Sequence record: NC_049813.1
Length of the DNA stretch: 44,219 nt
Source: Escherichia phage vB_EcoS-12210I
Direction: 5' to 3' (one strand)
Positions 10,947 to 44,219 of this stretch are shown in pieces (the first letter of the stretch is position 1; each line of letters begins with the position of its first letter). Below the pieces are notes generated by a model. It saw nothing but the letters and a program-made list of their open reading frames with translations, had not been told where the DNA came from and made no database searches. Both the position numbers and the translations under genes were made by a program.

Positions 10947-10949
10947 TAA

Positions 10950-14882: not shown

Positions 14883-14915
14883 TTAATTAATCTCTCATTT
14901 CGTTTCGATGAGTTA

Positions 14916-14961
14916 ACTATACAGGAAGATTGGATTAACTCTTTAGCAAAAAGTGCCATGC
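14916..14961 (-). promoter_or_regulatory. Promoter-like module copy d (variant element) with TATAGT hexamer
   Basis: Element 14942-14961, hexamer 14916-14921, start region CATCGAAACGA downstream. Confidence 0.5.
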
Positions 14962-14964
14962 AAT

Positions 14965-14986
14965 AAAAAACCCTCCGAAGAGGGTT
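14965..14986 (-). terminator. Rho-independent terminator after the major tail protein gene
   Basis: CCCTC-CGAAG-AGGG followed by T6. Confidence 0.65.
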
Positions 14987-14992
14987 TGTGTT

Positions 14993-15649
14993 TTAAACTT
15001 TAGCTGCCACGGAGGACAGTCGACCACGAATGGATACCGCCATGGATACCGTTTCGATTTCGTTGACACCAATGGCAGGGATGTCATTGAAAGAGATAGT
15101 GCCGGACTGCAAGCGCATTTCCTGAGCGCGAGGTACGAACAGACGAATCGCAACAACCTGGCCAGACTCATCGTATTTACGCAGAACCGGATAGACCGGG
15201 TTGGTGTACTCGTGAGCAAAGGTGAAGGTGTTTGTTACCGCAGATTTATAAGTCGGAATCTGCTGTTCGCGTTCGTCAGAAAGGCACTGGAAGTTAACAA
15301 ACTGCTGTTCGCCGCCGTCAGTAGATACGTCCTGAACACACGGGACTTCGATCCATGAATTAATCTTAACAACCTCACCAGTTAAGCCAGCAGGGAACTT
15401 AGTGGCGTCGGAGGTATCAATACCTTCAACTGTTACCGAAGTGCCAGAAACTTCAGTTACTCGCACCTGTTTGTCGCTAAGTAGGGTTGAGCTGGAGGCG
15501 GTAAACAGAAGGTAGTCACCCTTAGCCAGGCCAGATGCGCTAGATACGGTTAAAACTGGTTTAGTTGCGTTAGAGATTTTAGTTACGTTAATTGGAGTTC
15601 CGCGAGTTCCTTCTACGAAGACCTGCGTGCCATTTGATAAATGAGCCAT
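14993..15649 (-). CDS. Major tail protein
   Basis: 218 aa immediately upstream of G/GT. Confidence 0.7.
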   Translation of the reverse strand: MAHLSNGTQVFVEGTRGTPINVTKISNATKPVLTVSSASGLAKGDYLLFTASSSTLLSDKQVRVTEVSGTSVTVEGIDTSDATKFPAGLTGEVVKINSWIEVPCVQDVSTDGGEQQFVNFQCLSDEREQQIPTYKSAVTNTFTFAHEYTNPVYPVLRKYDESGQVVAIRLFVPRAQEMRLQSGTISFNDIPAIGVNEIETVSMAVSIRGRLSSVAAKV

Positions 15650-15664
15650 GTATTTTTCCTTTTG

Positions 15665-16066
15665 TTAGTCTAGACGAACATAAAAATGAACCGGGATAAA
15701 CCACCCAGACTTGGATTTGATAACCGGGTTAACAACTCCAGACTCGTAAATGGTCCCGGTGTCAAGCATTGTACCATCAACGATAGATTCTGCCAATTGA
15801 TTAGCGATTTGTCTAGGCTTATCAATGCCAGTACCTGGACTGAAGAAGACAGAAACCTGCACCATCCCTACATAGTATTTGCACTTCCTGCTCAGCCCGT
15901 ATGTTACGGTGTCAACCTCGATGTAGTCATACTTTAGCCAGATAGAACCATCTGCTGGAGGAGTGAAAGCAACGTTTTCCCAAGATACTGGATATCTGAC
16001 TGGGAAGTTTTTCACCAGCAAATCATTAACATATTTCCTGGCAGCTATAGACAATTCATAGTGCAC
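15665..16066 (-). CDS. Putative tail terminator protein
   Basis: Position upstream of major tail protein (lambda U-like slot). Confidence 0.4.
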   Translation of the reverse strand: MHYELSIAARKYVNDLLVKNFPVRYPVSWENVAFTPPADGSIWLKYDYIEVDTVTYGLSRKCKYYVGMVQVSVFFSPGTGIDKPRQIANQLAESIVDGTMLDTGTIYESGVVNPVIKSKSGWFIPVHFYVRLD

Positions 16067-16505
16067 GTTTAGCCTCCTCTACTGCTTCCTGGAAGTATCG
16101 ACCAAGCCGCATCTGAACAATCCTAATAATGCCGTTTGGCGCCTGACCCGAACCGCCATACTCAAGGTGAATTGAGTAATCAAGCCTGTTTGTTATGTAA
16201 ATGACCTTTGTTCCCTTTGCTCTGGCTACCGCCCTTGCTTGTCTTGCGAGTGCTCTTTTGGTCTCTGTTCCAAGTTTATCATAGTCAATTACTGACTGCT
16301 GAGCCGGGGAGTTTGCTGTTATTTGCCAGTTGGCTTTAAATCTACCGGTGTCAACTGGTGACTGATCTACCAGGCCATTAGCTGTCTTGATAATGGTTCC
16401 TGCAACAACCTCATCAACTCCAGATTCAACCTTATCTATCCATTCAGAAATGGAGCGGGTAAATTCAATAACCCCGCCATTGGCCTTCGGTATAAAACTA
16501 GCCAT
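16056..16505 (-). CDS. Putative tail completion / neck protein
   Basis: ATG at 16505 overlapping the upstream stop; the track's longer N-terminus overlaps the previous gene. Confidence 0.4.
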   Translation of the reverse strand: MASFIPKANGGVIEFTRSISEWIDKVESGVDEVVAGTIIKTANGLVDQSPVDTGRFKANWQITANSPAQQSVIDYDKLGTETKRALARQARAVARAKGTKVIYITNRLDYSIHLEYGGSGQAPNGIIRIVQMRLGRYFQEAVEEAKRAL

Positions 16506-16869
16506 AAGTAGCCACCCTACGAAGAATTGGCCTGTAGCCAACAACTGTACCAGTTGGTTTAACAGGTCTCGGGTCAACAACAACAAAAGTGTCGCCATTG
16601 ACTTTAATCTGATAACCCTGCTTAATTTCAACCTGCGCCGTGAATATTCCGCGCTTATCGCCAAACTGGATAAACTCACCATCTATATCGCGCGTCTTGA
16701 TTTCTCGCACCAAGCCTTTTAGCTGAAATGTTTGCGAAGGAACTTCAACTTCAACGCCGTTAGCAATTTCAACATATCCATCACCAGTACTCATTTCATA
16801 AACGCCATTGGCATCACTAAAGAAGTTAATGCCAGAGCGAGTGATTGATTCAATTTCACTGTAGTTCAT
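16498..16869 (-). CDS. Putative head-tail adaptor / head closure protein
   Basis: Synteny; ATGA overlap with upstream gene. Confidence 0.4.
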   Translation of the reverse strand: MNYSEIESITRSGINFFSDANGVYEMSTGDGYVEIANGVEVEVPSQTFQLKGLVREIKTRDIDGEFIQFGDKRGIFTAQVEIKQGYQIKVNGDTFVVVDPRPVKPTGTVVGYRPILRRVATYG

Positions 16870-17282
16870 CGGCAACCACACCCACCGCCACCAGCGGAAG
16901 TAATTAAACCGAAGCCGCCGCCTTTCTTGCGGAGCAGTGCTTTGTACATACGGCCGAATTGAGAAGATGATAAGTCGCCAGATGCTGCTGATTGGGTATC
17001 ATAAGTGATAGAGAATTCACCGCTCAGTGCATAACTTGCCATCCTACGGCTGTATGTTTCCAGCCCTTCATTCTCACCCTTAAACGCGCCATCAGCAATC
17101 ATCAGGTGTAGCGCGTAAAGTCCTACTGCCTTATCTTTGTCTGCTCCAAATTTACTTTCGCATACGTATAGGCGTGCCAAATCAATCCATACATTAATTG
17201 ATTCGTCATCCACCGCTTTGAGCGCCGGAACAAGCGAGCGCATAAACGCCAAAATTGCATCATTCATATTAGCTCCATACAA
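16866..17282 (-). CDS. Putative head-tail connector protein
   Basis: Synteny between capsid and tail genes. Confidence 0.4.
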   Translation of the reverse strand: MYGANMNDAILAFMRSLVPALKAVDDESINVWIDLARLYVCESKFGADKDKAVGLYALHLMIADGAFKGENEGLETYSRRMASYALSGEFSITYDTQSAASGDLSSSQFGRMYKALLRKKGGGFGLITSAGGGGCGCR

Positions 17283-17308
17283 TAAAGGACGCCGAAGCGC
17301 CCTGTTTG

Positions 17309-17554
17309 TTATTTGTACTCGTTGCCAGTCTCAGCTTCGGAGATAGTTTTCGGTTCTTTGCGCTTTTTCTTGCTAACAATTTCTTGCGCGATTTGCTTGG
17401 TTGCTTTAGCGTCACCTTCAATAGTGAGTTTACCCTCTGCGATTAAACGCTTGAGTCCGTCGCAAATTACATCAACCTCAAAAGTGTCACCAGGCAAATA
17501 TTTCTCACCCTTGTAAACGATAAGGCAAGCGCCAGTGTGTTCTAAACGAATCAT
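17309..17554 (-). CDS. Hypothetical protein, 81 aa
   Basis: ORF downstream of the major capsid gene. Confidence 0.4.
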   Translation of the reverse strand: MIRLEHTGACLIVYKGEKYLPGDTFEVDVICDGLKRLIAEGKLTIEGDAKATKQIAQEIVSKKKRKEPKTISEAETGNEYK

Positions 17555-17618
17555 TTTTGTCTCCTTTGTTTATCTGATTGAGTGATTATAACCCAACAAA
17601 TCCATTTGGTACAGACGT

Positions 17619-17641
17619 AAAAAAAGCCCTCCGAAGAGGGC
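17619..17641 (-). terminator. Rho-independent terminator after the major capsid gene
   Basis: GCCCTC-CGAAG-AGGGC followed by T7. Confidence 0.7.
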
Positions 17642-17647
17642 CATTTA

Positions 17648-18592
17648 TTAGATTAAGGTAATACCTTTGATTACGGCCATCGTCAGAGGGCGATAAACGA
17701 TCAAACCTGTAGCTTTTGATGTTACAGGGTACTTAAAGTGCAAGTCCTTAGGTTGTCCTGGAAGAACGTTGGTAGCTTCCGGAATCTCGATAGACATATT
17801 GAGTGGACTCTTCTCAAACGCCAGAGCAGCCTTACCATTCGCACCATCGTAGTTGTCCAGGAACTGCAAGAAACGAATGGTCAAACCTGGGTTGTTACGA
17901 GTGAACAGTTCACCGTAGCTCAAATTTGTCTGCGGAACCAGTTGCTGCATAATTCGACGAGCAGAGGCCGGAAGCAGAATGTCAGTCACATGATGGAGGC
18001 CCTGTGTTGAAGTCTCAACTGCGTCAATCATCTCGGTGATATCACCGATTGCGTTGTCCGGAATATTCCAACTTGGAGTTGCAACAACGTTGTTGATGTT
18101 CGGCTGGTCGAATACGCTCACGATGCCGTGCGGGGCGGAACCAGACCACACCAGTTTATCCAGCAGGTTGTCGTGCGCTTCGAAAGCCAGGGCTTGCTTG
18201 CGAGTTGACAGGGACTGACCAGTTGCGGCGCCAGCTTTAATTTCATCAATAGAAATCAGGAATGCGTTACCGAAACGGAACACTTTGCCTTGTTTCTCGT
18301 TCATAAACGCATCAACCAGCGGCAAGTCGTCAGAGTAATCAGCGATAATCTGAGCAATGCCAGCACCATCAAATTCTGGGTACTCGAAATACTTCGCGTG
18401 ACCAGGAATTTCATTTGTTACAGGGAAGATATTAACAACTGAGTTTTCTGCGTATTCTTTTTCGTAAGCACGGTTCAGAGCAGCGGTAAGCTGGCTAACA
18501 GTCCAGATACCAGCGGCATCAGCTTTTTCTACGCCCATTTGCTCGAGGTGAGCGGTGATTTTTGCTTGTTCTGCATCAAATTTAATGGCCAT
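17648..18592 (-). CDS. Major capsid protein
   Basis: 314 aa between scaffold and connector genes; terminator immediately downstream. Confidence 0.75.
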   Translation of the reverse strand: MAIKFDAEQAKITAHLEQMGVEKADAAGIWTVSQLTAALNRAYEKEYAENSVVNIFPVTNEIPGHAKYFEYPEFDGAGIAQIIADYSDDLPLVDAFMNEKQGKVFRFGNAFLISIDEIKAGAATGQSLSTRKQALAFEAHDNLLDKLVWSGSAPHGIVSVFDQPNINNVVATPSWNIPDNAIGDITEMIDAVETSTQGLHHVTDILLPASARRIMQQLVPQTNLSYGELFTRNNPGLTIRFLQFLDNYDGANGKAALAFEKSPLNMSIEIPEATNVLPGQPKDLHFKYPVTSKATGLIVYRPLTMAVIKGITLI

Positions 18593-18664
18593 TCTTTATT
18601 GTTCCTTTTCAGTTATGTGTTTACGGATTCATTATACACGAGTTTTTAGCCCACGCAATGACAT

Positions 18665-18688
18665 AAAAAAAACCTCCCGAAGGAGGCT
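18665..18688 (-). terminator. Hairpin with U-run
   Basis: CCTCC-CGAA-GGAGG followed by T8. Confidence 0.6.
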
Positions 18689-18704
18689 TTATATATCTTA
18701 ATTA

Positions 18705-19214
18705 TTAAGCTGCAACAGTTGAGTCTGCGGATTGAATAAGCTGAACTTCAACTAGTGCGCCATCAACGCTTAGGTCTTGCGGGTCTGTGCCCGTTTTTTT
18801 GATGTAACCACCAGCAAATGTAAAACCAGTCTCCCAAGTAGAACCTGCCGCTTCTGCAACAACAACGCCACTCGCGTTTACGAAAACCTTGCCACCAAAA
18901 GCTGGCGCAGCCGCTAGATTTGTACGAACCCAGATTCGACCATGAGTCATTACGTTAACCGCTTCATTTACGCGAGCTGTGCCATCTGGAGTCTCGTAAT
19001 GAGATTTAACAACAACACCATAAGGTTTAACTGGCGAGCCAGTTACAGCTGGGAGTCCAACAACCTTGTGACCATCTACAGGCTGAGCGGATGTAACGCC
19101 AACAAAAGTGCCAACCGGAATTGGTGCTGCACCGCCAACCACACAAGCACCGTCGATGTTATAGAGCGAAGTATCAGAAATCATACCAGCCAGTGCTACG
19201 GAACGAATTGCCAT
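18705..19214 (-). CDS. Putative head decoration / structural protein
   Basis: 169 aa Gly/Val/Ala-rich, between scaffold and capsid genes. Confidence 0.4.
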   Translation of the reverse strand: MAIRSVALAGMISDTSLYNIDGACVVGGAAPIPVGTFVGVTSAQPVDGHKVVGLPAVTGSPVKPYGVVVKSHYETPDGTARVNEAVNVMTHGRIWVRTNLAAAPAFGGKVFVNASGVVVAEAAGSTWETGFTFAGGYIKKTGTDPQDLSVDGALVEVQLIQSADSTVAA

Positions 19215-19226
19215 GTTTATAACTCC

Positions 19227-20315
19227 TTATTTCTTAATTTTAGCTAAACGAGCACGCGGGTCTAATTTCTTAGGCTCATCGGCGCTGTCATATTTGTCGG
19301 AAGCGGTAGTCGCTTTACGTATTTCAGCCATTTTATCAGATTCTTTGGCAATGTCGAACGCTGCGTCGATGTATGCGTCAGACTTCTCGGAAACATCAAG
19401 GCCGGAGACTTCTTTAACGTAAGCAACTTTAATGCCTTTAGCATCCATACCGTCAGCCTTAACACCAGCTTCAGCAGCAACAGCAACCAGGGCGGCAAGG
19501 GCATCAGCGTCAGCTTTCGCTTTAGCCACGGCAGCTTCGATTTCAGCAGGCATTGCATCTACCTTGGCTTTCAGTGCATCGCGCTCAGCGATTGCGGTGT
19601 CAGCCTTTGCGTTCAGTGCTTCGATGTGAGAGGCGATTTCCGGGGCGACCTCAAATTCCTGCGCGCCGTCGAGTTTAATTTTAACTGTCATTTCATGTTT
19701 ATCCTCTTTATTGATATCAACGTCAGTAGTATACGGGTTTTCCTGCTCACCGTCCATATTCAATTTGGCAATACCTGCGCGACCTCTATACACCATTGCG
19801 AGATGGTTCACTTTAATGTCACGCTGAATTGCGTCGAACTCCTGCCATCCTTCTGGCGCATCGAATTGATCACCATCAGATTTAAGGACGTACTCGCCAG
19901 TAATGGGGTCGCCCCAGCCAGGGGTTTCGTCAAGAATTGCATAGTAACCAACGGATAACTCCTTGGCGTTACCTGCCATAGCTTCCTGAATGGCTGTGTT
20001 ATCGTAAACAACAATCGGAGCAACCACTGAGCTACCCAATGGCTCAGCTTTGCCAGTAACGGAACCTACCACTACCTCTTTAGCGTTCTCTGAGTTAACG
20101 AAAACATGATCAAGAGTCATTGGCTTACCCTGGTAACTAGCGAGGGATTCATCCTTGAAGACTTCCTCGGCTGGGCGAAACTCTCGAACCGTTCGACCGT
20201 CTTCCATGTAGTAGACTTGCACGCCTAGGCGTGCGACTACTGGTGTGTCGACTAGAAATCCATTCTCGTCGATTGTCGCCTTGAACTTTGCGCTGTCATA
20301 GCGGATTTTGCTCAT
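19227..20315 (-). CDS. Putative prohead scaffold (possible protease-scaffold fusion)
   Basis: C-terminal Ala/Lys/Glu/Asp-rich helical region typical of scaffolds; position. Confidence 0.5.
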   Translation of the reverse strand: MSKIRYDSAKFKATIDENGFLVDTPVVARLGVQVYYMEDGRTVREFRPAEEVFKDESLASYQGKPMTLDHVFVNSENAKEVVVGSVTGKAEPLGSSVVAPIVVYDNTAIQEAMAGNAKELSVGYYAILDETPGWGDPITGEYVLKSDGDQFDAPEGWQEFDAIQRDIKVNHLAMVYRGRAGIAKLNMDGEQENPYTTDVDINKEDKHEMTVKIKLDGAQEFEVAPEIASHIEALNAKADTAIAERDALKAKVDAMPAEIEAAVAKAKADADALAALVAVAAEAGVKADGMDAKGIKVAYVKEVSGLDVSEKSDAYIDAAFDIAKESDKMAEIRKATTASDKYDSADEPKKLDPRARLAKIKK

Positions 20316-20327
20316 TTAATTCTCCTA

Positions 20328-21056
20328 TTATGATTCCCAATCTGGAACCGACCAGCAACGACAGCCGTATTCTTGACCTGGAAATATATCGTTACCACCA
20401 AGTTTAAAGCTAAGACCTTCTCTTGCTATGTGAGACTGACGCTCCCTATCATCTAACATGCCATGCCAGATGTAACGGCTAACACCAGCATCCTCAAGCC
20501 TACGCCTCATCAGTGTCGAGTTGAGACTAGAGACAATTCCAGATGCAATATTTGCCGTTCGCTTCCTGTATGTTTTGTACCTATCGGATAACTTAACGTA
20601 GTCACCATTCTGTATTGTTGCAGCCGCCTGTAAGAAATCATCCTTGATGTTATTTAGCAGCTTCCTGGCTGACTTATCCGTGGTGTAAATCCACTGATTA
20701 AGGTCATCATTATACCACGGCTCACCACCATTGATGCCGTTAACCTCAAGGTTCAGAACGCTAGGATTGGACCTTCCTCCGGTCTTTATTGCAAGCACAA
20801 GAAATTGCGAGCTATTGTATCTGTATATCGCCGCCCCTATAGCCGGGATGGTTGATATAAATGACGCCACCAATGCAGAAATTATCCCCTCAAGATATCC
20901 ATCCTCCTCCCCTAGCTCCTCTGCAGTATCAATTCTAAGCCTTGTTGCTGAATCCTTCATTGCTGAAATTAACTCAGTTACCGCAATGCTGAGATTGCGG
21001 TTAACCTTGCTCTCAATTATCTGCGGATACTTCCAGCGGGTCGTTACTGGTTTCAC
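20328..21056 (-). CDS. Head morphogenesis protein (SPP1 gp7 / Mu F-like)
   Basis: Downstream of portal; C-terminal GCRC motif. Confidence 0.55.
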   Translation of the reverse strand: MKPVTTRWKYPQIIESKVNRNLSIAVTELISAMKDSATRLRIDTAEELGEEDGYLEGIISALVASFISTIPAIGAAIYRYNSSQFLVLAIKTGGRSNPSVLNLEVNGINGGEPWYNDDLNQWIYTTDKSARKLLNNIKDDFLQAAATIQNGDYVKLSDRYKTYRKRTANIASGIVSSLNSTLMRRRLEDAGVSRYIWHGMLDDRERQSHIAREGLSFKLGGNDIFPGQEYGCRCWSVPDWES

Positions 21057-22281
21057 TAATCGTCACCTCTGTCTCTACTGAACCGTCACTAATCTTAACC
21101 TCTGGAGCGATTGCGCGCAATGTATCTCTCGCTTCGTCAATATCCATAGCGCCAGATGCAATTAGCGTCGCGATGCTGTTTACGTTCTTCTCAAGAATCT
21201 CGGCCTTATCCTTACTTGATTCCTGCGCTAGGGGATTAAACTCCACTGACCATTCTTGCTCGTCTGAAATGAACGGAATCAGGAACCCGAGAATCGGCAG
21301 TAGTTCAGCGTTACGCTTGCGATCGACTAGCTTATGGAATGTCTCCAATGCGGTGTTCTGACTTGATGATACGCCGCCAACGTTCTTGTTCTTCAGGATA
21401 ATCTCATGAATACCGCTCAGCGCAACGATTCTGTCGAACTTCTTATCCAGGAACGCATCAATCCCGCCAATATCAGAGTTCAGAACACTGTATTCTTCAG
21501 ACTCTGCGTCAATGCCAATTGCCTGACCAACGCCACTATTGTTATCAACCTGAGCTAGGCGCAATCTTGCAGCGCCAAATCCTTCGCTATCATCACACAA
21601 TTCAGCAAGACCCTTGGCTTTCCACACCGCCTGCTGCTTGCGCTTCAGTAACTGCGTAGCAAGTAGTTCGCAGTTGGTGTAATCCTTAATTGAGTCAAGA
21701 ATGTCACTGGAGAGAACGCTGCGGCCCCAGCCATCATTCTGCCGACGCATTACGTTAGGAATTCGCTCTCCGTCAATGATGTGAATGCGGCTGTAGTGCA
21801 CATCATAGAACATATCGCTCTCATTAGTTGTGATGCGATAGGTTAGTGGCTTACCAAAACGCGCGTTGCGTGGGTTCTCCTCGCGAGTCTGGACTTTTAC
21901 CTGCGTACGGTCGTAAACGCGAACAGTTTCAAGTTCAGCGCCTTCTCTGACCGGACTTGTTAGCGCCCTATTGTCCTTAACGATAGCGACAATGGCAGAA
22001 CCGCCGAACAATCTCGCCCATGACCAGGCTTCATTGATGTGCTTTGTTAGTTCTAGGTAGTCCCAGCGCGACCAGAATGCAGGCTCATCATCAATTCCAT
22101 CAATGTGGAATCCTGCCGCTAATGCTGTTTCCGGGATTGTGTCGATTATTCGACGCACCAGCGCATTATCCGCATAAAGCGAAGCTAGAATTGTAGGGGC
22201 TTGGCTCTGCAAGCTCCCGTAAATCTCACTACCATCACTGCCGCCTAGAAAGATATTGGCGTAGCTGTCTGTCTTGACCAT
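21013..22281 (-). CDS. Portal protein
   Basis: About 422 aa after terL; start reset to ATG 22281 with GGAG RBS because the track N-terminus runs through a hairpin. Confidence 0.7.
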   Translation of the reverse strand: MVKTDSYANIFLGGSDGSEIYGSLQSQAPTILASLYADNALVRRIIDTIPETALAAGFHIDGIDDEPAFWSRWDYLELTKHINEAWSWARLFGGSAIVAIVKDNRALTSPVREGAELETVRVYDRTQVKVQTREENPRNARFGKPLTYRITTNESDMFYDVHYSRIHIIDGERIPNVMRRQNDGWGRSVLSSDILDSIKDYTNCELLATQLLKRKQQAVWKAKGLAELCDDSEGFGAARLRLAQVDNNSGVGQAIGIDAESEEYSVLNSDIGGIDAFLDKKFDRIVALSGIHEIILKNKNVGGVSSSQNTALETFHKLVDRKRNAELLPILGFLIPFISDEQEWSVEFNPLAQESSKDKAEILEKNVNSIATLIASGAMDIDEARDTLRAIAPEVKISDGSVETEVTISETSNDPLEVSADN

Positions 22282-22294
22282 GTTTTTCTCCAAT

Positions 22295-22318
22295 AAAAAA
22301 GCCCCATACACGGGGCTA
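22295..22318 (-). terminator. Intercistronic hairpin with U-run (terL-portal junction)
   Basis: GCCCC-ATACAC-GGGGC then T6, GGAG, ATG; paralogous to 10543-10565. Confidence 0.55.
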
Positions 22319-22329
22319 GTTTATCACGC

Positions 22330-23904
22330 TTATTTAATTCCTGCGAGGCGTAACATCCGCGATTTAGGGTCATCTGCAAGGTTTAGCTCGCAGTTTATTG
22401 CCATTGTTGTTGTATCTACAATGTCATCATGGCGGTGGCTCATGTCTGCTGTAAATGCTGAAAACTCAGAGATGAATGCACTCATCCACGGCGCCGATTC
22501 TGGAATCATTACATTTCCAGCCTTAATCTGAGGCATTGCTGACAGCACTCTGGTAACTTTATCTGTATCTGGTATAAATGGCTCAATAGGTGTACGCATA
22601 ACCCTGCTTGCAGATTGAATCAGACCGATACCAGATGCTTTCTTCTCGATGATTACCTTCCGAAGAATACCCTCCTCCCGATTAGTCTTTCTCGCATTGG
22701 ATTCAAACTCTAGCAAGGTAGCCTCAAGCTCGGGCGCTTCATACTTACCCCTAACCATATCAAGAAGGTATAGCTTTCTGTCTTTTACTCCCCACAGCTG
22801 GAATACACTAAAGTCACTGTACGACTTCGTGGTAAGCGCGGTATCCGCAGTAATAAATCGGTAATCATACTTCAATGGCGCTCGCAAATCTCCACCGTAA
22901 CGTATAAACCAATCCGTATCCACCATGTTGCCACCTAGAGCTATGGGGCTTTGCATATATTGACTTGCGAACGTGTATGGGTCTGCGTCTTGCATAGCCA
23001 TTAAATCATGAATGGATTCCTTTTGTGGGTAGTAGCTGTAGTACTTAACACCATCTCGCTCGATGTACTCACTAGATAGAACGTCAGCCTCGAAGTGTGG
23101 TTTTAACCAGTCAGGAAGTGTGTCGATGTAATCCTCAGTAACTATCGCCGGAATCTTCACCACATCGAAGTCTATCCCCATACCTCCAGATTCAGCCATG
23201 AACCAACTTGAGTCGTTAACATGCAATCGCTGCTGTATGGAAATAATTGGTGTGGCCTTACCCTTGACCGAGCTAGCCCTACGAGAGCGAATGGTGTTCT
23301 TCAGGAGCATATGAACCGACTCTCGGCGAACCTTGCTAAACATGTCATCAACCTTATCTACATCATCCAGCATAAGGCAACCACTATAGGTGTCAGTAAT
23401 GTAGCCGCCACGTGAACCTGTAATCTGGCCTCCGATAGCTTTTGATATCGACTCAAAGCGAACCTTGCCTGACTCATCGAGAACCTGAATCTCATCATCC
23501 TTGCACGTGCCAAACTTGCTAGGGAATAGCTCCTGAAACTCCTTGCACTTAATTAGGTCGCGCACTCGCTTAGAGTTTCGCTTAACCAGGCTATCAGAGA
23601 ACGAAAGGCTAAGATTTCGCACTTTTGGTAGTTTTAGATAGCTATAAACTGGAAAGTGGATGGATGTGATCTCGGTTTTACCGGCGCCAGGCGATACGTT
23701 TATGATTGTATCCTTTCGATCTCCGCTAATAATCTCGTCAACTATCCTGCAAAGATACCTGTGATGCCAGTTCATGATGTACTTCTGGCCCTGTGTCAGG
23801 CTGAACCATACCCGAAGGAATGTCTCGAAGTTATGCGTGGAAAGAAGCCTGATGGCTTGCTTTTCTGATTGGGATAGCTCCTCCCAAACTAAAACATCAC
23901 TCAT
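22330..23904 (-). CDS. Terminase large subunit
   Basis: 524 aa with Walker A-like PGAGKT and acidic C-terminal nuclease region; position. Confidence 0.8.
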   Translation of the reverse strand: MSDVLVWEELSQSEKQAIRLLSTHNFETFLRVWFSLTQGQKYIMNWHHRYLCRIVDEIISGDRKDTIINVSPGAGKTEITSIHFPVYSYLKLPKVRNLSLSFSDSLVKRNSKRVRDLIKCKEFQELFPSKFGTCKDDEIQVLDESGKVRFESISKAIGGQITGSRGGYITDTYSGCLMLDDVDKVDDMFSKVRRESVHMLLKNTIRSRRASSVKGKATPIISIQQRLHVNDSSWFMAESGGMGIDFDVVKIPAIVTEDYIDTLPDWLKPHFEADVLSSEYIERDGVKYYSYYPQKESIHDLMAMQDADPYTFASQYMQSPIALGGNMVDTDWFIRYGGDLRAPLKYDYRFITADTALTTKSYSDFSVFQLWGVKDRKLYLLDMVRGKYEAPELEATLLEFESNARKTNREEGILRKVIIEKKASGIGLIQSASRVMRTPIEPFIPDTDKVTRVLSAMPQIKAGNVMIPESAPWMSAFISEFSAFTADMSHRHDDIVDTTTMAINCELNLADDPKSRMLRLAGIK

Positions 23905-23922
23905 TGTTATACCCTCTTATTG

Positions 23923-24429
23923 TTATAACTTGCTAATCACGGACTCCAGCGCCTCCTTCATACTATCAACGTCGTTAGCTGTGGAGTTGTTGCTAATCTT
24001 AATCTCCTGCGGCTTATCAATGCCAAGTTCTTTACCAACGATTGTGGAGTTGATGATACCCGCAACGCCAAGCTGATACTTCTGCTCGTAGATTACGTTA
24101 TCAATAAATTCCATCACATCAGAGTACCCAGCCTCAGTACGCCAGCGTGCGAATCTATTGATGTTGACACCCATGAAGAGCGCCAACCCGGTTAATGTGA
24201 ACACGCGCGGCTTGTGTACAAGGTTTTCACTAACAACGCCCTGGAAAGCTGCTGTCTCAATTGCCTTAATTGCCTCACTCTCTGCCCAGGAGAAGTATCG
24301 AACGGCGAAATTGAAGACCTCCTCTGGTGTGTACTTGCGGTTGATTGCCACCATGGCAATATCGCCATACTTCTTGTTGTATAGCGCCTTGAAATTTCCC
24401 TCACCCATCTTTAGTGCTGCTTTACTCAT
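23923..24429 (-). CDS. Terminase small subunit (putative)
   Basis: 168 aa directly upstream of terL; AAGGAGG RBS. Confidence 0.55.
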   Translation of the reverse strand: MSKAALKMGEGNFKALYNKKYGDIAMVAINRKYTPEEVFNFAVRYFSWAESEAIKAIETAAFQGVVSENLVHKPRVFTLTGLALFMGVNINRFARWRTEAGYSDVMEFIDNVIYEQKYQLGVAGIINSTIVGKELGIDKPQEIKISNNSTANDVDSMKEALESVISKL

Positions 24430-24452
24430 AAATCCTCCTTTGTTGAGGTCAG

Positions 24453-24461
24453 ATTATACCA
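24453..24461 (-). promoter_or_regulatory. Extended -10 element TGGTATAAT upstream of terS (candidate late promoter)
   Basis: Perfect TGnTATAAT about 24 nt upstream of the terS ATG. Confidence 0.4.
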
Positions 24462-24472
24462 TATTGGAGACG

Positions 24473-24495
24473 AAAAAAAGCCCTCAAGCGAGGGC
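24473..24495 (-). terminator. Rho-independent terminator separating the early block from terS
   Basis: GCCCTC-AAGC-GAGGGC followed by T7. Confidence 0.7.
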
Positions 24496-24540
24496 TAAAA
24501 ACAACGAGAGAAACGAAACTTTACAAGGGTATAACACTTT

Positions 24541-24738: not shown

Positions 24739-24816
24739 TGGCGCTCCGCACTGGATTCGAACCAGTAACCTACGACTTAGAAGGTCGTTGCTACTATCCT
24801 ATTGAGCTAGCAGAGC
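24739..24816 (-). tRNA. tRNA-Arg (anticodon UCU), CCA encoded
   Basis: Manual cloverleaf: acceptor GCTCTGC/GCGGAGC (one G-U), T arm ACTGG-TTCGAAT-CCAGT, anticodon stem ACGAC/GTCGT with loop CUUCUAA, 5-nt variable loop; D stem weak. Confidence 0.8.
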
Positions 24817-25566: not shown

Positions 25567-25612
25567 ATTATATGCCATCCATGGCGACTGCGTTGAGCAA
25601 TTCGTGCTATTT
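25567..25612 (-). promoter_or_regulatory. Promoter-like module copy e: element 25593-25612, TATAAT 25567-25572
   Basis: Element and hexamer with 20-bp spacer. Confidence 0.55.
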
Positions 25613-26398: not shown

Positions 26399-26444
26399 AC
26401 TATAATAAATTACCCCAATACTGTTTTAGGAATTCGTGCTATTT
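26399..26444 (-). promoter_or_regulatory. Promoter-like module copy f: element 26425-26444, TATAGT 26399-26404
   Basis: Element and hexamer with 20-bp spacer. Confidence 0.55.
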
Positions 26445-26839: not shown

Positions 26840-26885
26840 CTATAACAAAACCCGCCGTAGCTGGTTAGGCAAAAAGTGCTATTTA
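26840..26885 (-). promoter_or_regulatory. Promoter-like module copy g: element 26866-26885, TATAGT 26840-26845
   Basis: Element and hexamer with 20-bp spacer. Confidence 0.5.
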
Positions 26886-27289: not shown

Positions 27290-27337
27290 GGATTATACCA
27301 GTCAGGATGAATCCCATTTTAGCAAAAAGTGCTATCT
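27290..27337 (-). promoter_or_regulatory. Promoter-like module copy h: element 27318-27337, TATAAT 27290-27295
   Basis: Element and hexamer with 22-bp spacer. Confidence 0.5.
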
Positions 27338-27797: not shown

Positions 27798-27843
27798 ATC
27801 ATAGCTGACTACCCGATCCATTGTTTAGCAATTCGTGCTATTT
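27798..27843 (-). promoter_or_regulatory. Promoter-like module copy i: element 27824-27843, TATGAT 27798-27803
   Basis: Element and hexamer with 20-bp spacer; CATCGAAAACA start region. Confidence 0.55.
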
Positions 27844-29761: not shown

Positions 29762-29809
29762 GAATAGCGCTTTTTGCTAAAGACATTATGAGTTAGCGAG
29801 GCTATAGTT
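29762..29809 (+). promoter_or_regulatory. Promoter-like module copy j: element 29762-29781, TATAGT 29804-29809
   Basis: Element and hexamer with 22-bp spacer; start region CATCAAAAACGAGG. Confidence 0.5.
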
Positions 29810-30265: not shown

Positions 30266-30426
30266 TGCTATTACCATCTGAGATAAATTATTTCGATCTT
30301 GAGGTCATAAGTGCCTACAGCGGCAAGGGTTGGCCTTGCGGTGACTGGTTTAATGAGGACCTACTGGATTCTCACGAGATTATGCTCAAGGCGATAGAAA
30401 AAGCACGAAATAGCACGAATTGCTAA
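30262..30426 (+). CDS. Hypothetical small protein, 54 aa
   Basis: ATGA-type overlap with upstream gene; 3-prime end overlaps promoter element k. Confidence 0.3.
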   Translation: MMLLPSEINYFDLEVISAYSGKGWPCGDWFNEDLLDSHEIMLKAIEKARNSTNC

Positions 30427-30469
30427 AACGAAATCGCAAGGATGCGGTATTATCTTTACATCGAAACGG
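30408..30469 (+). promoter_or_regulatory. Promoter-like module copy k: element 30408-30427, TATTAT 30448-30453, start region CATCGAAACGG 30459-30469
   Basis: Full module geometry. Confidence 0.6.
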
Positions 30470-32655: not shown

Positions 32656-32991
32656 GTGTTTATTTTGGATTTGTACCGCTTCTGCGAGTCGTATTCATAC
32701 TTCACGCGCCAGCATTTGGCGCGATTCATCTACCAACATAAGGACTCTCAGAGATTCAGCAAAGCAGCAGGTTTGTCGCATAGGGAATTTTGCAGCGCTG
32801 CTTCAAAGGAGTTTTGCGCAAAGATGTTAACTGCTGGATACATTGATGGTAAGTGTGGTGAGTTTGTTAGCAAGGGTAGCCTGAAGAGGCCGTTTGATTT
32901 CAATTTCGATGCGCTTAGCGGGTATGAGAGCAAGTACATAAAAGAGATGATGAACATAGGAACAATGACTGACGAGGAGTTATTTTCTTAA
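32656..32991 (+). CDS. Hypothetical protein, 111 aa (GTG start)
   Basis: ORF begins at GTG right after the upstream stop; could start at a later ATG. Confidence 0.35.
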   Translation: MFILDLYRFCESYSYFTRQHLARFIYQHKDSQRFSKAAGLSHREFCSAASKEFCAKMLTAGYIDGKCGEFVSKGSLKRPFDFNFDALSGYESKYIKEMMNIGTMTDEELFS

Positions 32992-33051
32992 ATAGCACTT
33001 TTTGTTAAAAGCCCCTTGTGGGCTTTTGTTATTATTAATTCATCGAAACGA
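32990..33051 (+). promoter_or_regulatory. Promoter-like module copy l: element 32990-33009, TATTAT 33030-33035, start region CATCGAAACGA 33041-33051
   Basis: Full module geometry; a hairpin (33009-33025) sits inside the spacer. Confidence 0.55.
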
Positions 33052-33072: not shown

Positions 33073-33150
33073 ATGGTTAAGTTCTTCGCTGGTATGCTGA
33101 CTGCTGTTGCAATCATGGATAACGTAGCTATTTATCTTGGCGTGTACTGA
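33073..33150 (+). CDS. Small hydrophobic peptide, 25 aa
   Basis: AGGAAAGGAAAA RBS; MVKFFAGMLTAVAIMDNVAIYLGVY. Confidence 0.35.
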   Translation: MVKFFAGMLTAVAIMDNVAIYLGVY

Positions 33151-33209
33151 TAGCACAAATTGCTAAATAAAAGAAAAACAAAAAGAGCATAGTTACTTCA
33201 TAGAAAACA
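33150..33209 (+). promoter_or_regulatory. Promoter-like module copy m: element 33150-33167, CATAGT 33188-33193, start region CATAGAAAACA
   Basis: Module geometry with a variant start region. Confidence 0.5.
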
Positions 33210-33223
33210 AAGAGGATTTTAAA

Positions 33224-33316
33224 ATGGATAATATTATGAAGATGAGCCAAGTTAATGGAAAGGCCCATCCATTAGCTATGCGGTACGATATCGACGTTGA
33301 AGTTAGAATTAAGTAA
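33224..33316 (+). CDS. Hypothetical small protein, 30 aa
   Basis: AAGAGGA RBS; followed by a terminator. Confidence 0.3.
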   Translation: MDNIMKMSQVNGKAHPLAMRYDIDVEVRIK

Positions 33317-33324
33317 CAGAAATA

Positions 33325-33346
33325 GCCTCCACTATGAGGCTTTTTT
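33325..33346. terminator. Terminator at the convergence of the plus early operon and the lysis cassette
   Basis: GCCTC-CACTAT-GAGGC followed by T6. Confidence 0.65.
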
Positions 33347-33721
33347 GCGTCTTAAGATTAATGCCATGAGAATTAAAACCAGCAGACCCATCGCTCCCGT
33401 TCCAATCCACGGCAGTGCGGATGATTCGTTATTGGTGATCTCAATCTTTTCAGCAGTGATTGTTGAGGCCTTAATCGAATTGTCAGCAGTCTTTTTTCCG
33501 CTCGAGCTATCAAGTGACCCAACCTTAGAATCTTTAACTGTGGCTTCACTGGAGTTACTTGAGTCAACCTTGTTCGTTAACCCGACACCAACCTTATTGT
33601 TCTCTGTACCAGCTTGAGCGCTAATCTCTGGCTTACTGCCAATTAAACCAGTCAGCGCAGACGTTGCCGAACATCCAGATAAAGCTACGCACATTACTAA
33701 CGCTGCAATCCACTTAAGCAT
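33332..33721 (-). CDS. Unimolecular spanin (outer-membrane lipoprotein with C-terminal transmembrane segment)
   Basis: Lipobox LSGC near the N-terminus plus C-terminal hydrophobic helix and basic tail; position after endolysin as in T1 gp11. Confidence 0.65.
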   Translation of the reverse strand: MLKWIAALVMCVALSGCSATSALTGLIGSKPEISAQAGTENNKVGVGLTNKVDSSNSSEATVKDSKVGSLDSSSGKKTADNSIKASTITAEKIEITNNESSALPWIGTGAMGLLVLILMALILRRKKAS

Positions 33722-34182
33722 AGCTTAATCTCCTCATTTCTCCTGTTAACAAGGCCTTTAACTACCTTCAGTTTCCCGTTAACTCGAGCCTTGTTCCACA
33801 TCCCGAGAGCCTTGCAACCTTGCTCAATCTTACCCTGGTTAATTAGCCTTACAGCCGTGGACTTCCTCATCGCTGAGCCGCCAACATTATAGCTAAAGCT
33901 GATTAACGCCCCCCTTGTCTGCGGTGCGATTGGGTAGGTAACTGCATCCTGAACATACTTAGCATGAATCTGGATATGTTTCTCCAGCAGGTTCCGGCAC
34001 TCCCTATTGCTGTAAGTCTTACCCCAAACAACATCAGGACCAGTAATACCGGAACAAACTGTAGGGATTCCGGCAATGTCCATGTACGGCTTGTTCTCCA
34101 CACCTTCCACGAGCTCAATAAGCGGAGCTGCGATGTATATCGCCGCAGCCGTAGCCGCGGTAATTAGCAGCTTCTGCTTCAT
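33697..34182 (-). CDS. SAR endolysin (phage lysozyme, GH24-type)
   Basis: N-terminal weakly hydrophobic signal-anchor segment; lysozyme-like E-x8-D-x5-T motif region (ENKPYMDIAGIPTVCSGITG). Confidence 0.7.
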   Translation of the reverse strand: MKQKLLITAATAAAIYIAAPLIELVEGVENKPYMDIAGIPTVCSGITGPDVVWGKTYSNRECRNLLEKHIQIHAKYVQDAVTYPIAPQTRGALISFSYNVGGSAMRKSTAVRLINQGKIEQGCKALGMWNKARVNGKLKVVKGLVNRRNEEIKLCLSGLQR

Positions 34183-34398
34183 TTATTTGCTCCTTATATT
34201 GATTGCTGTTTTCAAGTCTCCAGATTCAAGCGCCCGCCTGATAGCTTGACTATCCTTATACTTCCAGTAAGCACCCCAGGCTCCGAAAATGATTAGAGCG
34301 ATAAGGCTGATTATTGCTATAGTCATTTGACCAGTTGCCGCACCAGTAAACGCAGCACCGCCAGTTGATGCTGTAGCGGCGTTAATTACTTCTCTCAT
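34183..34398 (-). CDS. Holin (putative pinholin), about 71 aa
   Basis: Hydrophobic transmembrane segments; AAAGGTGGA RBS before ATG 34398; immediately upstream of the endolysin. Confidence 0.6.
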   Translation of the reverse strand: MREVINAATASTGGAAFTGAATGQMTIAIISLIALIIFGAWGAYWKYKDSQAIRRALESGDLKTAINIRSK

Positions 34399-34476
34399 GT
34401 GATCCACCTTTATGTATTTGTCAATGCTTAAGTTAATAAAAGAATGATACATTAGCACCGCTCGGAAAAGAAGCAT

Positions 34477-34500
34477 AAAAAAAGGGAGCCAAAGGCCCCC
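34477..34500 (-). terminator. Hairpin with U-run upstream of holin
   Basis: GGGGGCC-TTT-GGCTCCC (one G-U) followed by T7 on the minus strand. Confidence 0.5.
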
Positions 34501-34527
34501 CGCTTGTAAAGCTATGTTTTTTCTGCG

Positions 34528-34704
34528 CTAGTCAGCGATAATAAATTCAACTAACGAACCATCAATCGGCGCTAAAATGTGAGTCATGTCATCGCCGTAA
34601 ATCTTGTAATATCCATCACCCTGGTACTCTGCATTGTACGGCTGGTTAACTGTAAATGGCAGTGTCTTTGAGTTGTTCTTGGTGCAATAAATCACTTTAG
34701 TCAT
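34528..34704 (-). CDS. Hypothetical small protein, 58 aa
   Basis: AAGGAAG RBS downstream of a promoter-like module; weak similarity to the 30026 product (K.L.PF...YNAE). Confidence 0.45.
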   Translation of the reverse strand: MTKVIYCTKNNSKTLPFTVNQPYNAEYQGDGYYKIYGDDMTHILAPIDGSLVEFIIAD

Positions 34705-34745
34705 TTTGTGCTTCCTTGTTTAGCTCATCTCGTTTCGATGTGGTG

Positions 34746-34790
34746 ATTATGCCGCATTTCTACGGCATTACTTAGGCAAAAAGTGCTATT
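34746..34790 (-). promoter_or_regulatory. Promoter-like module copy n: element 34772-34790, CATAAT 34746-34751
   Basis: Element and hexamer with 20-bp spacer; start region CATCGAAACGA. Confidence 0.55.
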
Positions 34791-37077: not shown

Positions 37078-37123
37078 ATAATACACCACCCCACCGATTC
37101 ATCTTTAGCAATTAGTGCTATTT
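37078..37123 (-). promoter_or_regulatory. Promoter-like module copy o: element 37104-37123, TATTAT 37078-37083
   Basis: Element and hexamer with 20-bp spacer; start region CATCGAAACGAAACGA. Confidence 0.6.
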
Positions 37124-39528: not shown

Positions 39529-39629
39529 ATCTAAATTCCTATAAAAATTGTCTTGTAGCGTTTAATTGAGTACAATAATACCATCAAATCAGTATGACTT
39601 TTAACAAAAAATGCTATTGAGGTAATGAA

Positions 39630-40106: not shown

Positions 40107-40152
40107 AAATAGCACTAATTGATAAACAGTGGCGCTATGCATTGTGTATAGT
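40107..40152 (+). promoter_or_regulatory. Promoter-like module copy p: element 40107-40126, TATAGT 40147-40152
   Basis: Element and hexamer with 20-bp spacer. Confidence 0.55.
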
Positions 40153-41138: not shown

Positions 41139-41172
41139 TGATACAATCCAACTTATCAATTAGTGCTATTTT
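41139..41172 (+). promoter_or_regulatory. Candidate tail-fibre promoter (TGATACAAT extended -10 at 41139-41147) overlapped at +1 by an inverted copy of the 20-bp element (41153-41172)
   Basis: Element copy q is in the opposite orientation to all other plus-gene copies and lies downstream of the -10. Confidence 0.4.
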
Positions 41173-44062: not shown

Positions 44063-44219
44063 TTAGAATGTGTCGATTTGTTTTGATTCTACTTTAATCT
44101 TTTCTTCAGGACTACTTTTTTCTGCAACTTTCTTTGGTGCTGCTGGGTTGAAGCCAGTTGCTGCATTTGCTTCAATCTCTGCCTTTCGCTCTATGATGTG
44201 GGGTTCGAAAACCTTCCAT
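44063..44219 (-). CDS. 3-prime part of the ERF-like gene (same gene as 1-621; 44093-44219 duplicates 1-127)
   Basis: Frame continuity across the junction; TAA at 44063-44065. Confidence 0.5.
   Translation of the reverse strand, partial: WKVFEPHIIERKAEIEANAATGFNPAAPKKVAEKSSPEEKIKVESKQIDTF
44093..44219. repeat. Terminal overlap copy (identical to 1-127)
   Basis: Direct comparison. Confidence 0.9.

Follow-up and report, generated by a model that had tools for sequence, protein, structure and literature searches.

Organization of the lysis cassette

The window analysed here is a complete phage genome of 44.2 kb, assigned to Veterinaerplatzvirus (Drexlerviridae, Braunvirinae) and related to T1 and Rtp. 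Its minus strand contains three ORFs, at 34183..34476 (97 aa), 33697..34182 (161 aa) and 33332..33721 (129 aa), that encode orthologues of T1 gp13, gp12 and gp11: a holin, a SAR lysozyme and a unimolecular spanin. The holin gene itself occupies 34183..34398 and specifies 71 aa. Upstream on the same strand are an intrinsic terminator (34477..34501) and a gene for a DUF7244 protein (34528..34704), and a hairpin covers the spanin stop codon (33324..33341). A preliminary description had drawn the cassette as 33332-34476; the three ORFs do lie within these boundaries, but the right end takes in a 78-nt non-coding leader (34399..34476, minus strand) in front of the holin gene.

The family assignments are far beyond what chance would give. 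The holin matches phrog_2877 over its full length (residues 1–71 of the 71-position profile; E=2.2e-37), the endolysin matches the Pfam Phage_lysozyme family (PF00959; E=1.7e-35) and the spanin matches phrog_1804 (E=5.1e-49). Identities to T1 gp13, gp12 and gp11 are 58%, 45% and 37%, respectively; together with the synteny, these values bear out the T1-type set of holin, SAR endolysin and unimolecular spanin that had been proposed. The holin/endolysin/spanin order is kept in 70-odd related loci and is common to T1, Rtp, JeanPiccard, OzMSK, DTL, TR3, NBD2 and MM01, where the genes are annotated as holin, (SAR) endolysin and u-spanin. Over 1701 nt, the sequence is 100% identical to 41 vB_EcoS records assigned to Veterinaerplatzvirus. 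The cassette type is already known and ordinary, being the standard three-gene host-lysis set of a T1-like coliphage.

The hairpin at 33324..33341 is terminator-like on both strands, more strongly on the plus strand, and therefore closes both the lysis cassette and the converging plus-strand genes. Terminators are annotated at the equivalent site in T1, CEB_EC3a and MM01.

The SAR endolysin

The ATG of the endolysin gene comes straight after the holin stop codon. Its 161-residue product is an R21-type GH24 muramidase resembling T4 lysozyme, and its best matches among solved structures (E~1e-28) are RrrD (4ZPU) and the protein of entries 3HDE/3HDF, which we take to be R21. The catalytic triad, E26-x8-D35-x5-T41, aligns with the same residues in 3HDE and 4ZPU. 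Residues 5–22 (LLITAATAAAIYIAAPLI) are uncharged and end three residues before E26, and a similar stretch is found in all related loci. The protein thus has the features of R21-type SAR endolysins: a weakly hydrophobic N-terminal TMD directly before the catalytic Glu and no signal-peptidase site. Homology, the SAR stretch and the triad alignment all uphold the earlier designation of this enzyme as a SAR-type endolysin. Cysteines occur only at positions 43, 62, 123 and 155; the Cys-free SAR domain, together with Asp as the second catalytic residue (D35), points to steric control and not to disulfide caging as in P1 Lyz.

The same N-terminus could be read as an ordinary cleavable signal peptide, from which a soluble enzyme would be secreted that is neither membrane-tethered nor holin-gated. 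We regard this as highly improbable. MKQK followed by 18 uncharged residues does have the layout of a signal peptide, and the finding that the T1 endolysin alone lyses Escherichia coli, without a holin, whereas the cytoplasmic T7 endolysin does not (PMC10954549), is predicted by both models. However, Glu26 lies only three residues past the hydrophobic stretch, such that cleavage would leave almost no N-terminus ahead of it. The sole Ala-x-Ala-like site (I-A-A) is followed by Pro, and a proline after the cleavage site blocks signal peptidase I. In the alignment to 3HDE the stretch also falls on the SAR domain, and its 50% content of Gly, Ala, Ser and Thr likewise argues for an uncleaved SAR domain.

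The unimolecular spanin

The upstream ATG at 33721 is the start codon of the 129-residue spanin. It lies 25 nt inside the endolysin gene (end 33697), as the preliminary description stated, and follows the Shine-Dalgarno sequence GAGGAG (33735-33730). The N-terminus, MLKWIAALVMCVALSGC, contains Lys3, a hydrophobic core and the lipobox LSGC, whose cysteine is Cys17. This lipobox fits the family pattern [LVI][ASTVI][GAS]C, and the G-C-S motif is invariant in an alignment of nine relatives. The residue at +2 is Ser, and an inner-membrane retention signal is therefore absent. At the opposite end of the protein, residues ~100–123 form an uncharged C-terminal TMD with a mean hydropathy of 1.98, followed by RRKK. 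A single-gene spanin with a lipobox and a C-terminal transmembrane segment, as had been described, is what the sequence encodes, and both elements are conserved among the related spanins. The periplasmic domain between these elements is rich in Ser, Thr and Lys, and no cysteine occurs between Cys17 and the TMD here or in 74 related loci.

A protein is placed in the T1 gp11 u-spanin family when it shares 40% identity or more with a member across 40% or more of the length, and RTP is listed in that family (PMC6139136). The present spanin passes this cut-off through the Rtp spanin, to which it is 98% identical over 129 aa. T1 gp11, the sole member for which these properties have been shown, is lipidated, is sorted to the outer membrane and complements lambda RzRz1 (PMC6139136), and the T1 spanin alone is bactericidal (PMC10954549). 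In family members the periplasmic domain is characterized by a short helix and, after it, at least four beta elements (PMC6139136); a single-sequence AlphaFold model of our spanin (pLDDT 57), in which only the terminal helices are modelled, says nothing on beta content. The GenBank twins of this phage label both the holin and the spanin as ‘hypothetical protein’.

The holin start codon

The holin ORF contains three in-frame ATGs, at 34476, 34452 and 34398, which we confirmed on the sequence. The preliminary description had pointed out these candidates and suggested that they could give rise to holin and antiholin forms. Comparison with relatives places the start of translation at 34398, with 34476 and 34452 situated in a non-coding leader. 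The 34398 ATG is preceded by the Shine-Dalgarno sequence AAGGTGG (34410-34404), whereas 34476 directly follows the terminator T-run and has no Shine-Dalgarno sequence. Of the 785 phage records matched in tblastn searches, most have alignments that start no earlier than residue 27, the Met encoded at 34398. The product is 71 aa long in 75 of the 76 related loci.

In the dual-start alternative, 97- or 89-residue forms initiated at 34476 or 34452 would act as antiholin to the 71-residue form, in the manner of lambda S107/S105. The upstream frame is open, with ATGs at the same sites, in the window, DTL, OzMSK and JeanPiccard (where the first start is GTG), and forms of 89 aa and 97 aa are annotated in OzMSK and DTL, respectively. 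However, it is closed by a stop six codons upstream in Rtp and four codons upstream in MM01, a 1-nt insertion in CEB_EC3a leads to a stop 11 codons upstream of the holin start, and T1, NBD2, TR3 and CY1 have no upstream ATG. The ratio of synonymous to nonsynonymous codon changes is 6:47 in the 78-nt extension versus 164:16 in the holin CDS. The added part of the longer holins annotated in some relatives is therefore under no coding constraint, and a holin/antiholin pair is unsupported. The spacing also differs from that of the known dual-start motifs (lambda S107/S105 and S21 71/68), in which the starts are two to three codons apart and the longer form gains a charged residue at its N-terminus; here 18 and 26 codons separate the upstream Mets from the 34398 start, in a frame that is not conserved. 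Initiation at 34476 or 34452 is thus largely refuted by these sequence comparisons, and we consider it extremely improbable. Met25 was ruled out as an internal second start, the residue being Leu or Ile in T1, NBD2, MM01 and TR3.

Family and topology of the holin

Initiated at 34398, the holin has the attributes of the T1 gp13 family (phrog_2877): a full-length profile match, a length of ~71 aa, a hydrophobic core with a charged C-terminal tail and a position directly upstream of the endolysin. It is 97% identical to the Rtp holin. No Pfam or NCBIfam holin family was matched, including those of phage 21, and the only match obtained, to TatA_B_E, is sub-threshold (E=0.02); by sequence the protein therefore falls outside the phage 21 holin families. 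The hydropathy profile shows 42 uncharged residues (4–45) followed by the charged tail. Within this stretch, residues 25–45 form a strongly hydrophobic TMD, the sole segment of that kind, and residues 4–23 are weakly hydrophobic and Gly/Ala-rich (mean Kyte–Doolittle value ~0.8, calculated by hand).

The protein is a candidate pinholin with two transmembrane segments. The uncharged stretch has room for two helices, an invariant G23-Q24 lies in its middle and the Gly/Ala-rich N-terminal half resembles a SAR-type TMD1. DeepTMHMM assigns two TMDs to both the T1 and the TLS holin (PMC11447400). The partner enzyme is a SAR endolysin, as expected for a pinholin, and this pairing extends to all family members (related loci; PMC6139136). 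The published counts differ, with one TMD in the T1 and MM01 records and two in the OzMSK record and the TLS paper. A canonical holin with a single TMD, forming large non-specific holes for which a SAR endolysin merely has no need, is a rather unlikely alternative to which the T1 and MM01 records, the confinement of strong hydrophobicity to residues 25–45 and the missing Pfam match to holin families would all be suited. A single-sequence AlphaFold model (pLDDT 69), one long continuous helix, agrees with it as well but does not decide topology. The T1 holin alone is neither lytic nor clearly bactericidal (PMC10954549), which would be unexpected of a pinholin.

Upstream sequences and transcription

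The window contains 18 copies of a repeated box, AATAGCACnnnTTGCTAAA, against 0.7 expected, and the same 21-nt repeat has been reported for TLS, T1 and Rtp (PMC11447400). The interval from 33168 to 34771 is free of copies. On the same strand, the nearest one, AATAGCACTTTTTGCCTAA (34772..34790, minus strand), lies one gene upstream of the holin, where it is joined by a -10-like CATAAT (34751-34746) and by CATCGAAAC (34740-34732); this unit precedes the DUF7244 gene, not the holin. Box-type units have the box ~75 nt before the start on the same strand. In the window, no copy comes closer than 370 nt to the holin ATG, and none of the 75 distinct related loci has one within 200 nt of the holin, in agreement with the earlier remark that the repeated promoter module is missing here.

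The DUF7244 gene encodes a 58-residue SH3-clan protein (Pfam PF23896, E=6.3e-29) with 44% identity to its homologue T1 gp14. The DUF7244 protein has been proposed as a lysis-module accessory (PMC13164509). Hydropathy indicates neither a signal peptide nor a TMD in the present protein; the proposed accessory gene lies in a separate terminator-bounded unit, and its product carries no export signal.

The terminator between the DUF7244 gene and the holin (34477..34501, minus strand) consists of an 8-pair hairpin (34501-34483), GGGGGGCC-TTT-GGCTCCCT, followed by a T-run. In 68 of the 69 distinct related upstream regions, a hairpin and T-run end 64–88 nt ahead of the holin ATG, with differing stem sequences and irrespective of whether a DUF7244 gene is present, and the CEB_EC3a and MM01 records annotate a terminator before the holin. 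The leader that follows is more conserved in nucleotides than the holin CDS. In addition to the two in-frame ATGs and the Shine-Dalgarno sequence, it contains a weak sigma-70-like pair, TTCTTT (34472-34467) and TATCAT (34449-34444) at a spacing of 17, and a conserved TTGACA box (34424-34419).

We propose TTCTTT-17-TATCAT as a candidate promoter from its position, because, when the leader was scanned with a sigma-70 PWM, the top site in this phage (7.2) did not exceed shuffled sequence (mean 7.3), and in a consensus promoter scan the interval 34399–34527 yielded no promoter on the minus strand. Across nearly all lineages examined, the T-run is followed by a TAnnAT hexamer whose distance from the ATG varies little and which usually has a TT-rich hexamer 17 nt before it. 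Some of these pairs score higher in the PWM, such as those of T1 (TTGTGT-17-TAAAAT, 10.6) and L057 (TTGCCT-18-TAAAAT, 12.4). The late structural genes share the holin layout of a terminator followed by a weak -10-like element, and clear -10 elements follow other late-region terminators (e.g. TGGTATAAT before the small terminase gene). Different, late control of the holin, as the preliminary description suggested, is plausible from this arrangement.

It is quite possible, if not our preferred account, that the cassette has no promoter of its own. Polymerase that started at the box-type promoter (34790-34746) or at a site before it would then read through the terminator at 34501-34477, and terminator efficiency or antitermination would set holin dosage and lysis timing. 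The late operon offers a precedent: it contains about 10 co-oriented terminators, some only 10–20 nt before the next start codon, where read-through must therefore happen. The conserved position of the holin terminator, with or without the DUF7244 gene, and the weakness of the leader promoter candidate in this phage fit the same account. On the other side, the recurrence of TAnnAT and the TT-rich hexamer across lineages, their scores in T1 and L057, the -10 elements behind other late-region terminators and the nucleotide conservation of the leader argue for a promoter located directly after the terminator.

Two further candidates for function in this region were ruled out. An RNA switch hiding the Shine-Dalgarno sequence was rejected on the grounds that the minimum free energy of the leader fold is no better than that of shuffles (z = -0.8), RNAalifold predicts 0 pairs for the leaders of 15 lineages, and Rfam returns only a sub-threshold match that is caused by the terminator. 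The CATTGACAAAT box has no further copies in the genome beyond chance (22 matches with two or fewer mismatches versus 20 expected) and so is no late-promoter motif shared among genes.

The TTGACA box is located at -26 to -31, and in several lineages it stands 18 nt before an nAnnAT whose last two bases open the holin ATG. If this pair were a promoter, its transcript would lack the holin start codon and encode the endolysin and spanin only; the dosage of the holin would no longer be tied to that of its two harmless-until-triggered partners. That the 78-nt leader region, with its terminator, weak promoter and TTGACA box, is a dedicated lysis-timing element conserved across Drexlerviridae seems to us improbable. 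The family-wide terminator and the nucleotide-conserved leader could guide transcript mapping of lysis timing in T1-like phages, whose gene regulation is poorly known.

A model for lysis

Our preferred reading, to which we assign a probability of roughly 0.88, is that the locus is an orthologous T1-like siphophage (Drexlerviridae) lysis cassette: a terminator-bounded unit with the holin start at 34398, the upstream ATGs in a non-coding leader and a lysis mechanism drawn by analogy. The predicted features of the three proteins are clear from their sequences. The holin is a 71-residue membrane protein of the T1 gp13 family, the N-terminus of the GH24 lysozyme is predicted to be an uncleaved, weakly hydrophobic signal-anchor of the R21 type directly before the catalytic Glu, and the single-chain spanin is predicted to begin with a lipoprotein signal for the outer membrane and to end in an anchor for the inner membrane. 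In transcription, the cassette may correspond to a T1 ‘transcripton’, with terminators at both ends. It would be expressed by read-through of the upstream terminator or from a weak sigma-70-type promoter lying right behind it, and the box-type promoters of the early and replication genes would not be used for it.

By analogy with phage 21 and T1, the lysozyme would be exported by Sec and left tethered and inactive in the inner membrane, and the spanin would be lipidated at Cys17 and span both membranes through the murein mesh. The holin would build up and, at a programmed time, depolarise the inner membrane, probably via small ‘pinholes’. Depolarisation would free the lysozyme, which would refold and degrade the murein; the spanin, freed in turn, would fuse the inner and outer membranes, and the cell would burst. 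The analysis matters little beyond annotation, where it provides correct names and start sites for three genes.

Comparison with known lysis systems

Among the closest known systems is that of T1, which has the same gene order and similar protein sizes (71/162/133 aa in T1 versus 71/161/129 aa here), the same neighbours (gp14/DUF7244 before the cassette and, converging on it from the other side, the gp10/gp9 helicase block), the lipobox LSGC, a terminator and leader ahead of the holin and a further terminator where the spanin ends. The two differ in the endolysin/spanin overlap (25 nt here, 1 nt in T1), in an HNH endonuclease gene before gp14 in T1 and in the box at -26, which is TTGACA here and TTGTTC in T1. 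Rtp (rtp63–rtp65) and the other Braunvirinae (JeanPiccard, DTL, OzMSK and CEB_EC3a) have near-identical proteins and share the 25-nt overlap, terminator and leader; only annotation choices distinguish them. One such choice is the internal ATG from which the spanin is annotated in Rtp and DTL (120 aa), with loss of the signal peptide.

The resemblance to phage 21 (pinholin S21 68 and R21) centres on the endolysin, which is clearly homologous to the 3HDE/3HDF protein and shares its E/D/T triad and a SAR domain free of Cys; depolarisation-triggered release of the endolysin would be expected in both systems. Unlike in phage 21, the holin here has no detectable relation to known holin families and no dual-start motif, and a u-spanin takes the place of a two-component spanin. 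With lambda S-R-Rz/Rz1 the cassette shares the three-step logic of holin, endolysin and spanin and its clustering in a terminator-bounded unit, whereas lambda employs a large-hole holin with the S107/S105 dual start, a cytoplasmic transglycosylase and an embedded two-component spanin.

Overall organization of the lysis cassette

The window is the entire genome of a T1/Rtp-like siphophage, with identical 127-bp ends (1–127 and 44093–44219); a circularly permuted genome was probably assembled with an overlap. A single tRNA-Arg gene (anticodon TCT; 24739–24816, minus strand) lies immediately upstream of the terminase region. Over 1.7 kb around the lysis cassette, the sequence matches 41 GenBank records for Escherichia phages named vB_EcoS-... 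at 100% identity; these are classified as Drexlerviridae; Braunvirinae; Veterinaerplatzvirus. The identical records annotate the cassette as 'hypothetical protein', 'SAR endolysin' and 'hypothetical protein'; the close relatives JeanPiccard, OzMSK, DTL, Rtp and TR3 have holin, (SAR) endolysin and u-spanin or Rz-like spanin.

The cassette comprises three minus-strand ORFs: a holin frame of up to 97 aa (34183–34476), a 161-aa endolysin (33697–34182) and a 129-aa spanin (33332–33721). The holin matches PHROG family phrog_2877 over its full length (E = 2e-37), the endolysin Pfam Phage_lysozyme (PF00959, E = 1.7e-35) and the spanin phrog_1804 (E = 5e-49). These unambiguous matches, with homology to T1 gp13, gp12 and gp11 (58, 45 and 37% identity, respectively, by direct comparison), bear out the T1-type arrangement of holin, SAR endolysin and u-spanin proposed in the preliminary description. 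The 58-aa gene upstream of the holin is 44% identical to T1 gp14. The sequence facts reported earlier (three minus-strand ORFs, a 25-nt overlap and in-frame ATGs at 34476, 34452 and 34398) are all correct; the sole errors concern the holin boundary and speculation about dual starts.

Holin start site and topology

The conserved holin product is the 71 aa that begin at ATG 34398, not at the boundary of 34476 assigned earlier. This ATG is preceded by a Shine-Dalgarno sequence, AAGGTGG (34410–34404). A tblastn search with the 97-aa ORF matched 785 phage records, most aligning from residue 27 only. In an alignment of 11 phages, the upstream frame is closed in Rtp and MM01 (stops six and four codons upstream) and, through a 1-nt insertion, in CEB_EC3a (stop 11 codons upstream of the holin); T1, NBD2, TR3 and CY1 lack an ATG upstream. 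In the five phages that are free of indels, 6 synonymous and 47 nonsynonymous codon changes fall in the 78-nt extension, versus 164 and 16 in the holin coding sequence. ATG 34476 also immediately abuts the T-run of a terminator. Because of the residue-27 matches, the closed frames, the codon changes and the position of 34476, the idea that the three methionines yield holin and antiholin forms is unsupported. The same start-site evidence leaves the 89-aa (OzMSK) and 97-aa (DTL) holin annotations without support; the public records for these loci (L004 2346–2615 and L010 2062–2355) overextend the gene by 18 and 26 codons.

The holin contains an uncharged stretch of 42 residues (4–45), with a Gly/Ala-rich, weakly hydrophobic first half, an invariant G23-Q24 at its center and strongly hydrophobic residues 25–45, followed by a basic tail. 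This stretch fits the two-TMD class II pinholin proposed for the T1 and TLS holins by the TLS authors (PMC11447400). A single-TMD topology is still conceivable, and an AlphaFold model does not separate the two; for the two-TMD reading, 'pinholin' denotes a mode of action that we infer, not demonstrated membership.

Endolysin

The best solved-structure relatives of the endolysin (E ~ 1e-28) are RrrD (4ZPU) and the pair 3HDE/3HDF, which we take to show R21, the SAR endolysin of phage 21, in its inactive and active states; the match extends into the N-terminal hydrophobic region. The N-terminus consists of MKQK and 18 uncharged residues (5–22; 50% Gly/Ala/Ser/Thr), and the catalytic motif E26-x8-D35-x5-T41 begins three residues past this stretch. 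The first cysteine is at position 43. As judged from its sequence, the enzyme is of the R21 type, not the disulfide-caged P1 Lyz type. Signal-peptidase cleavage is unlikely, since the only Ala-x-Ala-like site is followed by proline. T1 endolysin expressed without its partners lyses E. coli, unlike the T7 endolysin, which is cytoplasmic (PMC10954549). Such export without a holin is what a SAR enzyme should show. The preliminary description had named dependence on a canonical holin pore as evidence against its proposal, and the T1 result bears on this point for the homologue only.

Spanin

The spanin N-terminal region, MLKWIAALVMCVALSGC, contains the lipobox LSGC, as does T1 gp11, with Ser at +2 after Cys17. 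No cysteine occurs in the periplasmic domain, and the C-terminal uncharged segment (100–123) is followed by RRKK. In the close relative CEB_EC3a (L006 1957–2346) the lipobox is an unusual variant, LYGC, with Tyr at −2.

The spanin ATG at 33721, preceded by GAGGAG (33735–33730), sits 25 nt inside the endolysin gene (stop 33699–33697). The protein is 98% identical to that of Rtp if the corresponding upstream ATG is taken as the Rtp start; Rtp is a listed member of the T1 gp11 u-spanin family (PMC6139136, Table 5). Public records for Rtp (L003 1511–1900) and DTL (L010 1211–1573) start at an internal ATG, with loss of the lipoprotein signal. The signal peptide would be lost with these shorter starts, so 33721 is the correct one. 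Eight Braunvirinae-type loci have the 25-nt overlap, which is typical of this phage's lineage, whereas the overlap is 1 nt in T1 and 4 nt in most other T1-like phages.

Terminator and holin leader

A strong intrinsic terminator (34501–34483 plus T-run) separates the holin from the upstream DUF7244 gene. Among 80 related IMG/VR loci, a hairpin and T-run ending 64–88 nt before the holin ATG are found in 68 of 69 distinct upstream regions. Stem sequences vary by lineage, and the terminator is kept with or without the DUF7244 gene, itself found in 39/79 loci.

The leader between the terminator and the holin is more conserved in nucleotide sequence than the holin coding sequence (e.g. one difference in 78 nt relative to DTL, versus 19/213). 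Nearly every lineage examined has a TAnnAT hexamer just past the T-run and a TT-rich hexamer usually 17 nt upstream, TTGTGT-17-TAAAAT in T1. The corresponding minus-strand pair here would be TTCTTT (34472–34467) and TATCAT (34449–34444); because this site scores no better than shuffled sequence, the putative promoter is placed by position only. A TTGACA box (34424–34419) at −26 to −31 is conserved in 22 of 69 distinct Drexlerviridae leaders with diverged surroundings. The conservation is one of sequence: the box belongs to no conserved RNA structure, nor is it repeated at other places in the genome. In six lineages TTGACA lies 18 nt before an nAnnAT hexamer whose final AT is also the AT of the holin ATG; here that hexamer is a poor TCACAT.

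The late structural operon (5000–24500, minus strand) has about ten co-oriented terminators just before gene starts (24496–24479, 22317–22300, 18690–18669, 17642–17625, 17303–17286, 14987–14968, 13962–13945, 10565–10547 and 8444–8428). Good −10 elements come after several of them; the small terminase gene, for instance, is preceded by TGGTATAAT. Read-through must occur, as some terminators are only 10–20 nt from the next start codon. This layout, which matches the 'transcriptons' described for T1 (PMC11447400), suggests that T1-like phages have either such 'transcriptons', punctuated by terminators, or a mechanism of antitermination. Since the holin shares it, the earlier proposal of different (late) control for the cassette is reasonable.

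Repeated box and DUF7244 gene

The window has 18 copies of the box AATAGCACnnnTTGCTAAA, versus 0.7 expected: on the minus strand at 678–696, 14942–14960, 25593–25611, 26425–26443, 26865–26883, 27318–27336, 27824–27842, 34772–34790, 37104–37122, 39600–39618 and 41152–41170, and on the plus strand at 2542–2560, 3726–3744, 29763–29781, 30409–30427, 32991–33009, 33149–33167 and 40108–40126. As noted previously, no copy precedes the holin, and none lies within 200 nt of the holin in the related loci. The box contains an inverted repeat, TAGCA-N5-TGCTA. Every copy has a start codon ~75 nt downstream and a TAnnAT hexamer ~22 nt downstream, a wider gap than a normal −35 element allows; CATCGAAAC often follows, then the gene start. 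The literature already describes the box, as a 21-nt direct repeat of unknown function, in TLS, T1, Rtp and Rogue1 (PMC11447400). At many copies a lineage-variable inverted repeat (e.g. GGGTAA..TTACCC, GAGTTAA..TTAACTC) flanks or overlaps the −10; such hairpins do not seem to be discussed in the literature.

The copy nearest to the holin (34790–34772) precedes the DUF7244 gene (34704–34528), of which it is the predicted promoter and which the terminator cuts off from the holin. Neither a signal peptide nor a TMD is present in the DUF7244 protein. In a pinholin/SAR pathway, such a cytoplasmic protein could not reach the murein until lysis, which speaks against its proposed role as a lysis accessory (PMC13164509).

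Two plus-strand box-type modules (32991–33009 and 33149–33167) face the 3′ end of the spanin gene, and transcription therefore converges on the cassette. The second precedes a 30-aa ORF (33224–33316, plus strand) that is annotated in the GenBank twins and ends at a bidirectional terminator (33324–33341).

Comparison with known systems

The reading of the cassette is correct, ordinary and already known, with no departure from the family norm. The three genes are orthologues of T1 gp13-gp12-gp11, and the Rtp cassette is almost identical. By analogy, the cassette would function as the phage 21 pinholin/SAR system does, with a T1 u-spanin added.
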